From Parcubacteria bacterium C7867-007 (lineage in GTDB: Bacteria; Patescibacteriota; Minisyncoccia; Phycocordibacterales; Phycocordibacteraceae): a stretch of DNA of 64,000 bases. Positions within the stretch are counted from its first letter, which is position 1; the number at the start of each line of letters is the position of its first letter. A program made the position numbers and the translations under genes. The notes beneath the pieces are model-generated. The model was given only the letters and a program-made list of their open reading frames with translations, had not been told where the DNA came from and searched no databases. Positions 6,534-48,859 of this stretch are shown piece after piece. Location of the stretch: assembly GCA_001189195.1 (NCBI GenBank), contig LFCQ01000006.1, forward strand, positions 56,841 through 120,840, written 5' to 3'.

Positions 6534-6914
6534 TTGGACGAAATTGATATCAACCTCGGTCGTCGTTTGCGTCGCCGTCGCCGTCTGTTGGGTCTGACCC
6601 AACAAGAACTCGCACATGCAAGTGGGGTTCGATTTCAGCAGATCCAGAAGTATGAGTGTGCCGCGAACCGCATGAGTGCCGCTCGTCTCTGGCAACTCGC
6701 TGAAGTTCTGGAGGTCCCGGTCTCCTACTTCTACGAGGGCCTCACCCGTAATCAACGGGAAGCTCTGGAACAGGAGACGGTCTCGTCAGCGAACGCAGCC
6801 ATGGCTAGCAAGGAGACGCAGGACCTGATCCATGCGTACTACAAGCTCGGAGAACGTCCTCGGCGACGCCTCCTCGATCTTGCTAAAGCCATGAACGGCG
6901 AGGTCGAAGCGTAG
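6534..6914 (+). CDS. XRE-family HTH transcriptional regulator (alphaproteobacterial type)
   Basis: GVRFQQIQKYE..ANR.SAARL...A..L.VPVSYFYEG; TTG start after GGGGAG SD. Confidence 0.9.
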   Translation: MDEIDINLGRRLRRRRRLLGLTQQELAHASGVRFQQIQKYECAANRMSAARLWQLAEVLEVPVSYFYEGLTRNQREALEQETVSSANAAMASKETQDLIHAYYKLGERPRRRLLDLAKAMNGEVEA

Positions 6915-6964: not shown

Positions 6965-7059
6965 GTGAAAAGAAGGAATCATTGCTTTGAGCAAGAAAAG
7001 TGTTACAGTCCATTCAGGTTTTACATCAGTTCGATGTGACGAATGAGCGGGAGAGTGTT

Positions 7060-7308
7060 TTGGAAGATATCAATTTGCATGTCGGAAGGCGTATGCGCAT
7101 ACGCCGTCGTCTGGCAGGTTTCTCTCAGCAACAGGTTGGGGCTAAGTGTGGGGTGACCTTCCAGACGGTCCAAAAGATGGAATCTGGTCAGGTCGACATT
7201 TCGATAAAGCGACTCTGGAAACTCAGTGAGGTATTGGGTGTCCCCATAACCTACTTCTTCGATGGATACGGTGAAACTGATGACGGTTCTCCAGTAACCT
7301 CCTCGTAA
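7060..7308 (+). CDS. XRE-family HTH regulator, paralog of 6534-6914
   Basis: GVTFQTVQKMESG...L.VPITYFFDG; TTG start after GGGAGAG, same leader as the paralog. Confidence 0.85.
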   Translation: MEDINLHVGRRMRIRRRLAGFSQQQVGAKCGVTFQTVQKMESGQVDISIKRLWKLSEVLGVPITYFFDGYGETDDGSPVTSS

Positions 7309-39768: not shown

Positions 39769-40140
39769 CTACGCTGCGGCAGCCATCGGTTCTGCCAACT
39801 GTTGCTTGATGAACGCGATGATTTCTCCACGGATGAAAGACTTTGGCATGTCGTCACCCGCGACCCATCGAGCGAATAGTTCAGGGGTGAGTCCCCACCG
39901 ATCAAGAAAGCGGTTGGTGGTCATGCCGCAGAACAACGCGAATCGGAGGATCAGGCTGAACGTAGCGCGATCGATCTGCCCGGGATCAATTTCCGACCTC
40001 TCGAGCAGACCTCTGTAGAAGTGAATGGACTGCGTTGCGATCGCCTCAAGTCCCTTGGCGAACGTTGCGGTATTCAGACGTTCAGATTCAGACATCACCA
40101 GACTCCTTTGCGGTAACGCGAGAAATGATGTGAGTTCCAT
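39769..40140 (-). CDS. Hypothetical protein, possible C-terminal HTH
   Basis: 123 aa; AGGAG SD before the internal Met (MSESE); terminator 39726-39753. Confidence 0.6.
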   Translation of the reverse strand: MELTSFLALPQRSLVMSESERLNTATFAKGLEAIATQSIHFYRGLLERSEIDPGQIDRATFSLILRFALFCGMTTNRFLDRWGLTPELFARWVAGDDMPKSFIRGEIIAFIKQQLAEPMAAAA

Positions 40141-47156: not shown

Positions 47157-47699
47157 TTACACAACCTTCTCTTTGAGAAGTTGTGCATACTTCTCCTGCA
47201 CCTTCTGGAGCTTTGGCGCAATGATGACTTGGCAGTATCCCTGCATCTTATTCTGTGCGTAATAGTCTTTGTGGTATTCCTCAGCAGGGTAGAAGGTGGC
47301 CCCTTCTTCAATCGTGGTGACGATAGGATCACCCTCACTAGATGAATCACTCAGCTCTTTGATAAAGGCTACTGTCTCCTCCTTCTGTTCTGGAGTGGTG
47401 GGGAACACCACGGAACGATACTGCGTCCCAACATCGTTACCCTGACGATTTAATTGAGTTGCATCATGAGAACCGAAGAAGACGGTAAGGAGATCACGAT
47501 AGGCAACTTGTGAAGGATCAAACTCAATCTTAATCACTTCTGCGTGACCAGTATCTCCACCGCACACCTGCTGGTACGTAGGGTTAGCTGATTTCCCACC
47601 GGCATACCCCGGCTCAACGCCAGATACCCCTTTAAGCATTTTAAATACTGCTTCAGTGCACCAGAAGCACCCACCTCCAAATATTGCTGTTTCTGTCAT
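47157..47699 (-). CDS. msrA: Peptide-methionine (S)-S-oxide reductase
   Basis: GGGCFWC, GYAGG, GHAEV, QG.D.GTQYRS, AE.YH..Y. Confidence 0.97.
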   Translation of the reverse strand: MTETAIFGGGCFWCTEAVFKMLKGVSGVEPGYAGGKSANPTYQQVCGGDTGHAEVIKIEFDPSQVAYRDLLTVFFGSHDATQLNRQGNDVGTQYRSVVFPTTPEQKEETVAFIKELSDSSSEGDPIVTTIEEGATFYPAEEYHKDYYAQNKMQGYCQVIIAPKLQKVQEKYAQLLKEKVV

Positions 47700-47881
47700 A
47701 TGAGTAAGTATATCAAGTATCTATTTTTGACGTAATTCCAAATATAATCCCAAATATGTTATGAACAGGTATTTCTCGCTACTGTGTCCACCGCAGGCAT
47801 ATACTCCGAGCAGGTGCATCGAACTTTGATACAAAAGCACCTTGCGAATCATCGCATCATCAGTTAATCAAGGGGTCGATC

Positions 47882-48409
47882 ATGGGTTGGACAGACGAAC
47901 GTATTGAACTGCTCAAGAATCTCTGGAGAGATGGTCTCTCCGCCTCGCAGATCGCCAAGCAGTTGGGTGGTGTCACCCGCAACGCTGTGATCGGCAAGGT
48001 TCATCGCCTTGGACTATCTGGGCGTGCGACACCCTCGAAGCCGCAACGCACCTTCTTCAAGGCGCCGCGGCCTGCGAGACCGGTCACGGCAGCTCCGTCA
48101 GCACCGCGTCGGATATATGAGTCGGTTGAAGTGCCGACTCCCGCAAAGAAGTGCGGCACGGTGGTCGCACCCACACCCGTTCACTACGTGGACGAGTCGC
48201 CTGGAACGGCGACGATCACCACCCTCGGCAACCACATGTGCAAGTGGCCGATCGGTGACCCGTCACGCGAGAACTTCACGTTCTGTGGCAACAGAGCAGA
48301 GAACGGCCCGTACTGCTACAGACATGACGCTTTGGCGCATCAACCAGCCCAGGCCAAGAAGAAGTCTGCTGCGGCTGAACTTGCTCGCTCACTTCGCCGC
48401 TACATCTAG
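47882..48409 (+). CDS. gcrA: GcrA-family cell-cycle regulator
   Basis: WT.ER..LK.LW.DGLSASQIA..LGGVTRNAVIGKVHRLGL; CKWPIGDP....FCG...PYC..H; ELARSLRRYI. Confidence 0.92.
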   Translation: MGWTDERIELLKNLWRDGLSASQIAKQLGGVTRNAVIGKVHRLGLSGRATPSKPQRTFFKAPRPARPVTAAPSAPRRIYESVEVPTPAKKCGTVVAPTPVHYVDESPGTATITTLGNHMCKWPIGDPSRENFTFCGNRAENGPYCYRHDALAHQPAQAKKKSAAAELARSLRRYI

Positions 48410-48472
48410 AATCTATCCCTCGGGATATCAAACGGGCCCCTCCAGAACAGAGGGGCCCGTGATCTATTTTCC

Positions 48473-48859
48473 TTATTGTTTCTCGAACTCTAAACAGACT
48501 GAGTTAATACAGTATCTCTTTCCACCTTTGTCCTCAGGGCCGTCATCAAATACATGACCAAGGTGACTATTGCAGTGCTTGCAGAATACTTCAGTACGGC
48601 GCATGCCATGCGCGTCATCTGAACGGGTACCTACATTTTCAGCTACAGCAGGATCTGTAAACGAAGGCCAACCACTCTTGGAATCAAACTTTGCATCCGA
48701 AGAGAAGAGCTCATTGCCGCAAACCTTGCAGCGATACATCCCGTGGTCGTGGTTATCAACGTAGGCACCTTTCCAAGGAGCTTCAGTACCGCCTTCGCGG
48801 AGAACAGCATATTCTTCAGGGGTCAATTTGGCACGAATTTCGTCTTCATTTATATCCAT
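48473..48859 (-). CDS. msrB: Peptide-methionine (R)-S-oxide reductase
   Basis: KF.S.SGWPSF, HLGHVFDDGP, RYCINS. Confidence 0.97.
   Translation of the reverse strand: MDINEDEIRAKLTPEEYAVLREGGTEAPWKGAYVDNHDHGMYRCKVCGNELFSSDAKFDSKSGWPSFTDPAVAENVGTRSDDAHGMRRTEVFCKHCNSHLGHVFDDGPEDKGGKRYCINSVCLEFEKQ

Follow-up and report, generated by a model that had tools for sequence, protein, structure and literature searches.

We identified an intact gcrA gene within a 64,000-nucleotide stretch of a Patescibacteria genome; this whole stretch is referred to below as the window (Table 1). The open reading frame encodes 175 amino acids, splits the native gene msrA from the native gene msrB and runs on the strand opposite to both. 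The product ends in ELARSLRRYI and is placed in the GcrA family by PF07750 (179 bits against a cut-off of 26.9), with positions 1-154 of the 155 in the profile aligned and both domains covered. It also aligns end to end with the solved GcrA of Caulobacter crescentus (7YE1_G, E 7e-73). Against the GcrA equivalog model NF050816 it scores 268 bits, under the cut-off of 280 and thus outside the equivalog, while the sister copy scores 297, two further CPR copies 275 and 258, and two hosts 304-306.

Base composition sets the gene apart from its surroundings. Its GC content is 0.600 vs 0.477 and 0.465 in the flanking genes, ranking tenth among the 679 ORFs of the genome, and its GC3 is 0.66 vs a genome mean of 0.45. 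The carrier genome comprises 702 kb in 8 contigs and is 99% complete. An earlier, sequence-only reading of this DNA had described a full-length, two-domain GcrA, richer in GC than its neighbours, lying on the opposite strand between msrB and msrA with its own Shine-Dalgarno sequence and terminator, and all of these features were borne out. That reading had also named misassembly at the junctions and an alphaproteobacterial genome as possible errors. Misassembly was ruled out by a single public contig that crosses both junctions without a joint (although it may come from the same sample) and by the sister genome G004, which has the same gene order. An alphaproteobacterial genome was ruled out by the Patescibacteria-like RpoD and flanking-protein matches; a Ca. 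Paceibacterota record (L052) shares this neighbourhood, with 47-76% identity across 11 flanking proteins.

Table 1. Genes, domains and predicted signals in the window
Feature	Positions	Strand	Basis or remark
StaR-like XRE regulator	6534..6914	+	90% identical to a protein from the Phenylobacterium genome that is also the source of the nearest GcrA
Second XRE regulator, same family, in tandem	7000..7308	+	profile/sequence match
msrA, native gene	47157..47699	-	profile matches; one flank of gcrA
Predicted -10 element TATACT upstream of msrA	47707..47712	-	7 nt before msrA start
Predicted -10 element TATACT upstream of gcrA, carrier's own promoter type	47800..47805	+	7.5-fold enriched upstream of the genome's genes
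Shine-Dalgarno-like AAGGGG	47870..47875	+	sequence
gcrA, Phenylobacterium-type allele, 175 aa	47882..48409	+	intact ORF, profile and structure matches, trees
DNA-binding domain, aa 1-45	47882..48016	+	13/13 DNA and m6A contact residues kept
Sigma70-interacting CCCH zinc-finger domain	48200..48355	+	14/17 scored residues kept
G+C-rich hairpin, 11 pairs, predicted terminator, possibly bidirectional	48432..48460		between converging gcrA and msrB
msrB, native gene	48473..48859	-	profile matches; other flank of gcrA

The expression signals around gcrA appear to be those of the carrier. A scan for the sigma70 consensus upstream of gcrA returned no promoters, and hexamers similar to the predicted TATACT element were seen by eye upstream of related CPR gcrA copies. 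Since the same hexamer lies so close to the start of msrA, that gene is likely to have its own leaderless transcript, which would have followed the splitting of the operon. A search for repeats or integron-like sites that might serve as insertion targets at gcrA found only chance-level repeats. A DnaA-box-like element, present upstream of 6/17 gcrA copies vs 85/793 background ORFs and absent from this copy, was dropped as a candidate. Elsewhere in the window, an ORF of 123 aa at 39769-40140 on the minus strand has a high GC3 (0.62) and matches nothing in Pfam or NCBIfam.

Carriage of gcrA is patchy. A gene above the Pfam cut-off is found in 31/259 genomes of the family: 30/222 in the genus, which we take to be the one named C7867-001, and 1/4 and 0/33 in the other two genera. 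Outside the family it occurs in 8/400 genomes of an order sample and 1/380 of a phylum sample. Loci were retrieved for 30 of the 31 carriers; 19 have gcrA tail-to-tail with msrB, seven at a site with RRM and DUF1360 genes and four elsewhere. Among 30 gcrA-less kin searched, the msrB locus was found in 25, with gcrA there in 0/25 and msrA directly abutting msrB in 6/25. All msrB-site carriers (19/19) fall inside one 99%-supported species clade of 38, interspersed with non-carriers, in a FastTree species tree of five proteins and 70 genomes, many of whose rows are partly filled. Between the near sisters G184 and G126, a single 688-bp module containing promoter, gcrA and terminator was cleanly lost or gained, and in G218 (L019) a frameshift splits gcrA at the msrB slot. 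The second slot, beside the RRM and DUF1360 genes (L016, L022, L023, L025, L027, L028, L029), holds divergent alleles that look non-Caulobacteraceae; a quick tree placing the divergent copies had long-branch joins, and their origins were not drawn from it.

The nearest named GcrA proteins, among the best 120 matches, are those of Phenylobacterium at 70-78% identity (the nearest about 77%), and NCBI holds one 77% identical GcrA named from a Parcubacteria bacterium. In trees that omitted the frameshifted copy and the most divergent ones, this gcrA falls with two other copies inside a Phenylobacterium subclade (99/96, then 98/91), a further two CPR copies lie within Brevundimonas (100/99), and the remainder scatter among other Caulobacteraceae. 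The two Brevundimonas-type copies also have the single extra HTH residue found in that genus, while the three Phenylobacterium-type copies may represent one event spread between CPR (90/79 clade). A single-clade origin of CPR gcrA was rejected with 17 CPR and 34 alphaproteobacterial rows (p-AU 1.8e-56) and still rejected at 4e-5 with 10 short-branch copies and 20 hosts under a mixture model; in the short-branch tree the starred branches force at least three donor changes. The nesting and the rejected monophyly together imply that one slot holds alleles of several donors. In phylogenetic terms, gcrA is shown to be derived from Caulobacteraceae. Thus the sequence-only reading of a host-derived, Caulobacter-like protein holds for the Caulobacteraceae derivation, with the donor lying in a Phenylobacterium subclade rather than in Caulobacter, and the single insertion that it supposed gives way to a slot recurrently refilled across a genus, at a shared site and from several donors. 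With gcrA and StaR copies taken together, the genus-level types are Phenylobacterium here and Brevundimonas, Asticcacaulis and Terricaulis in kin.

In most gcrA copies, blastn matches to hosts end at, or only a few bases from, the start and stop codons. Such ORF-only likeness was considered as proof of precise cassette exchange and rejected, because dS exceeds 1 and any likeness in non-coding DNA would have decayed anyway. A search for mosaic gcrA alleles gave one suggestive case (G189), with little signal.

A second regulator tells a similar story of descent. The first XRE gene in Table 1, which we presume to be StaR, belongs to a set whose monophyly was likewise rejected (p-AU 8e-48, with the best 17 of 42 StaR-type loci and 14 host copies). 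The donor of StaR equals the donor of gcrA in 5/5 resolved genomes, three of Phenylobacterium type and two of Brevundimonas type; a sixth genome has a gcrA of ambiguous donor. Three of the five matches may come from one fragment, since staR lies 3-6 kb from gcrA in 8/79 host loci (Phenylobacterium, Caulobacter); the host genes lying between the two have no homologue in the carrier genome. In one Brevundimonas genome, about 90 kb separate gcrA from staR, although both genes are of Brevundimonas type in CPR. Taken together, the many separate captures and the matching donors of the two genes support a Caulobacterales host indirectly.

It could be argued that the donors were neighbours rather than hosts, and that the genes came through Caulobacteraceae phages or DNA in a shared habitat. 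GcrA is found in 31 phage records, in line with the earlier statement that Caulobacter phages carry it, and on 8 viral contigs. On one of these (L332), a phage GcrA with a divergent N-terminus has a zinc-finger stretch nearly that of the CPR copy in G206, which suggests that phages too may refresh this domain from hosts. However, a comparison with Caulobacterales and phage GcrA, as the sequence-only reading had proposed, gave a cellular Phenylobacterium placement, the full-length phage copies being 28-52% identical to this GcrA vs 77% for Phenylobacterium. The gene is not of phage type, being nearer to cellular copies and having native CPR flanks; none of the genes near the slot was recognisable as a phage gene, and the Brevundimonas pair, so far apart in the host, also argues against this route. 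We regard it as very unlikely.

Other regulators of host type accompany gcrA in this group. Co-occurrence counts, which overstate the association because kin are not independent, give StaR-type XRE genes in 16/30 gcrA carriers of the genus vs 26/192 others, CtrA at 240 bits or more in 6/222 genomes (five of them gcrA carriers), and MucR in 3/31 carriers vs 0/32 others. SciP, a CtrA-binding protein, is found in 16/259 genomes, just five of which carry gcrA. The carrier genome itself has a SciP-like gene (97 bits, cut-off 100) beside a degenerate CtrA-like gene, and two more XRE genes.

We also noted several other loci of related interest. In the carrier genome (G000), at C2:30868-33208 (L135:4869-7209, before the window), the SciP-like gene and the degenerate CtrA-like gene, which has a C-terminal extension, stand side by side with a ParB-like gene, and C1:95803-96684 (L136:3807-4685) encodes a PEPxxWA-CTERM protein with the top GC3 of the genome (0.78), which is probably donor-derived too. 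Six CPR genomes (L145, L148, L152, L153, L154, L157) encode fusions of an OmpR/CtrA-type winged helix with SciP (DUF1153), in either order, four of them Pfam-confirmed; these are possibly reworked CtrA antagonists. In G152 (C1:46972-50643, L273) two near-intact CtrA genes lie in tandem beside such a fusion, and one of them has an extended C-terminus and Ser at the position that we take to be the phospho-acceptor Asp. MucR/Ros genes in three gcrA carriers (L304, L305, L306) have native CPR genes on both sides. Among gcrA-less kin (L219, L222, L224, L225, L227, L228), StaR is of Asticcacaulis type (89%) or Terricaulis type (78-89%), predicting further hosts.

The residues of GcrA were scored at contact positions taken from PMC5887438. 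The DNA and m6A contacts R33, N34, I37, G38, K39, H41 and R42 and the backbone contacts are kept in full. The CCCH finger is present (equivalents of C118, C133, C143 and H146), and the sigma-contact residues W120, F130, F132 and Y142 are retained. The sigma side differs by G129N (also found in host Phenylobacterium), V149L and Y151H; according to PMC5887438, Ala at Y151 disrupts GcrA binding. Across the family, the CCCH finger is retained in 28/29 scored copies, and in 10/29 the DNA-binding domain is decayed (0-9/13) with 12-16/17 sigma-side positions still in place.

Based on Nei-Gojobori estimates, which are rough since dS exceeds 1, dN/dS is 0.11 (bootstrap 0.06-0.18) between this gcrA and that of its sister and 0.15 on its own branch, and 0.11-0.19 between CPR gcrA copies at synonymous distances above 1. 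These ratios show purifying selection on gcrA, as far as such estimates go. The constraint is weaker than on msrA (0.055/1.64), and relative to the sister copy the sigma-binding domain has changed more quickly (dN 0.21) than the DNA-binding domain (dN 0.046). Selection bears on the possibility that gcrA is transient cargo, brought in by frequent recombination with host DNA, favoured there by homologous replacement of a resident copy and drifting to loss without a lasting role. The patchy carriage fits such a view, as do the long end branches, the one frameshift, partial copies and the loss or gain at sister level. Nevertheless, the dN/dS values over these long distances argue against it, as do the native-type promoter and terminator and the retention of the regulators where the adjoining host genes are absent, and we consider transient cargo quite unlikely.

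The known partners of GcrA appear to be lacking in the carrier cell. According to PMC5887438, the protein docks in a groove formed by region 1.2 of sigma70 and the ends of the non-conserved region, and G133E and A136E diminish binding. The carrier RpoD lacks the non-conserved region: its anchor motifs in regions 1.2 and 2.1 are 37 residues apart, against 299-306 residues in the five alphaproteobacteria compared. It has Glu at both the G133 and A136 positions. Among 55 CPR RpoD rows, Glu is found at the G133 position in 54, and the A136 position has 46 Glu, 5 Asp, 2 Asn, 2 Gln and no Ala; the pattern is alike in gcrA carriers and non-carriers. RpoD was not found in 6/30 carriers and 1/30 non-carriers searched. 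The other two sigma factors of the carrier are frames of 183 and 205 aa. A complex prediction for the zinc-finger domain with domain 2 of the carrier RpoD scored 0.00, but its controls did not fold and it is given no weight here. One assembly, G088 (L183, L212), has two different full-length RpoD genes and is probably a contaminated bin.

The sequence-only reading had suggested checking for ccrM and GANTC methylation; searches for the methylase gene and counts of the motif in the sequence both gave negative results. Full-length CcrM was found in 0/31 carriers; 11 have some methylase match, the best in this genome at 28%. Two of these 11 carriers, G075 (L308) and G081 (L309), encode CcrM/HinfI-like methylases consisting of the catalytic domain only (46-47% over that domain, 248 bits vs a cut-off of 830). 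By sequence counts, the observed/expected ratio of GANTC is 1.01 in the carrier vs 0.69 in Caulobacteraceae loci, and no GANTC or YGAKTCG skew was found in the carrier's intergenic DNA. Judged from its genomic setting, the protein belongs to the GcrA family but does not form a GcrA/CcrM module with partners in its own cell.

It is therefore highly improbable, in our estimate, that GcrA serves as a sigma70 cofactor of the carrier's own RNA polymerase. The carrier RpoD does keep L128, L129, K139, R140 and A143 of the contact surface, and the carrier promoters look sigma70-like. Against this are the missing region and the blocking residues just described, an RpoD no different between carriers and non-carriers, and the lack of CcrM among the 31 carriers; even the sigma2 domain of E. 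coli does not bind GcrA, as stated in PMC4647560. Use with the carrier's own sigma70 would also make repeated refreshing from hosts pointless.

Alternatively, GcrA may act inside the Patescibacteria cell free of sigma through its DNA-binding domain, either marking or sorting imported, GANTC-methylated host DNA or as a plain repressor. This is unlikely, although the DNA-binding domain of this copy is fully intact and better conserved than the sigma-binding domain, ComEC is encoded and no export would be necessary. The copies with a decayed DNA-binding domain keep the zinc finger and most of the sigma-side residues; co-captured SciP and the winged-helix-SciP fusions would be left unexplained, and the carrier's intergenic DNA is free of GANTC or YGAKTCG skew.

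As the carrier sigma70 is predicted not to bind GcrA, the likely target of the protein is instead a Caulobacter-like host cell. We lean, with slightly better than even confidence, towards a host-matched regulator that is acquired anew from host DNA time and again and enters a Caulobacteraceae host by delivery, as part of a kit with StaR, CtrA, SciP and MucR. The donors of the gcrA alleles would then be the hosts, and the carrier would live on Caulobacteraceae cells. Natural competence would take up host DNA, which would recombine into the resident gcrA, so that the slot could be refreshed after host switches. GcrA might reach the host through a relaxase-free type IV secretion system (T4SS) or direct contact, dock on the host sigma70-RNA polymerase and alter the transcription of the host's cell-cycle genes. 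In C. crescentus about 200 such genes are activated by GcrA (PMC5887438), so a copy with an intact DNA-binding domain, as here, would act as extra GcrA and favour a sessile, DNA-replicating host state, while copies reduced to the zinc finger would be competitors of the host protein.

The carrier genome encodes a VirB4-like ATPase (382 bits vs a cut-off of 325), a coupling-protein-like ATPase ORF and ComEC. VirB4 is reported in 2,417/3,035 Patescibacteria assemblies (bioRxiv 10.1101/2025.01.22.634366) and is therefore not specific evidence for delivery. No secretion signal was identified in GcrA; visual inspection showed a basic C-terminus in GcrA and in some of the SciP copies, but none in StaR or CtrA. 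The strongest points against delivery to a host are the lack of a recognised route by which a monoderm-type T4SS would cross a Gram-negative envelope, Y151H together with the faster-changing sigma-binding domain of this copy, and the patchy carriage of gcrA. In addition, a different host guess comes from PMC12931201, in which C7867-001 is linked to Desulfobacterota in some OTUs by co-occurrence.

A wider proposal, to which we give a little less than even credence, is that one clade of Patescibacteria lives on dimorphic Alphaproteobacteria, as epibionts or as parasites. Fixed slots for GcrA, StaR, CtrA, SciP and MucR would be refilled from the current host, some of the regulators would be reworked to antagonists and injected to set the cell-cycle stage, and the slots would name the host genus. 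According to PMC11665869, hosts are known for hardly any Paceibacteria and the function of the T4SS in Patescibacteria is unsettled; the slots would give a genus-level host prediction for each genome. The hosts so predicted are related to the model C. crescentus and can be cultured, making baited enrichment a direct test, and the regulators in the slots offer concrete candidates for effectors, with solved structures available for their targets. If delivery does occur, one bacterium would reprogram the cell cycle of another with that host's own transcription factors. To our knowledge, such reprogramming of a cell's cycle by a parasite is otherwise known only from phages.

In conclusion, parasite-borne host regulators are already known from phages, and annotation tables may list the genes described here, as NCBI already does. 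The present analysis adds the test of many donors at one slot, the donor agreement of two genes and the mismatch with the carrier sigma70. A search of openly available full texts found no work pairing GcrA with Patescibacteria or candidate phyla. The Patescibacteria T4SS (bioRxiv 10.1101/2025.01.22.634366; PMC11665869) has a counterpart in the carrier's VirB4 cluster, which lies near a gene read by eye as dnaA; the review grades the role of this system as unknown and effector delivery as speculative (PMC11665869), and GcrA and StaR would be candidate substrates. Compared with C. crescentus GcrA (PDB 7YE1, 5YIX, 5YIU; PMC4647560, PMC5887438), the protein has the same two-domain layout, DNA/m6A contacts, CCCH finger and basic tail; unlike it, this copy scores 268 where the NCBIfam equivalog model requires 280, carries Y151H, and belongs to a cell that has no docking groove on its sigma70 and yielded no CcrM. 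A closer functional parallel may be phage phiCbK, whose host-like XRE protein TgrL regulates host genes on host promoters (PMC10688885). Like the phiCbK-like phages, the carrier would be a parasite of Caulobacteraceae with copies of host transcription factors from the same two families, GcrA and XRE. Phage GcrA, however, forms a separate clade about 31% identical to this GcrA, whereas the carrier alleles are close copies of host genes (mostly 70-88% over aligned residues) from several genera. The carrier is also, unlike a phage, a cell with its own cytoplasm, so its protein would have to be exported to reach the host.
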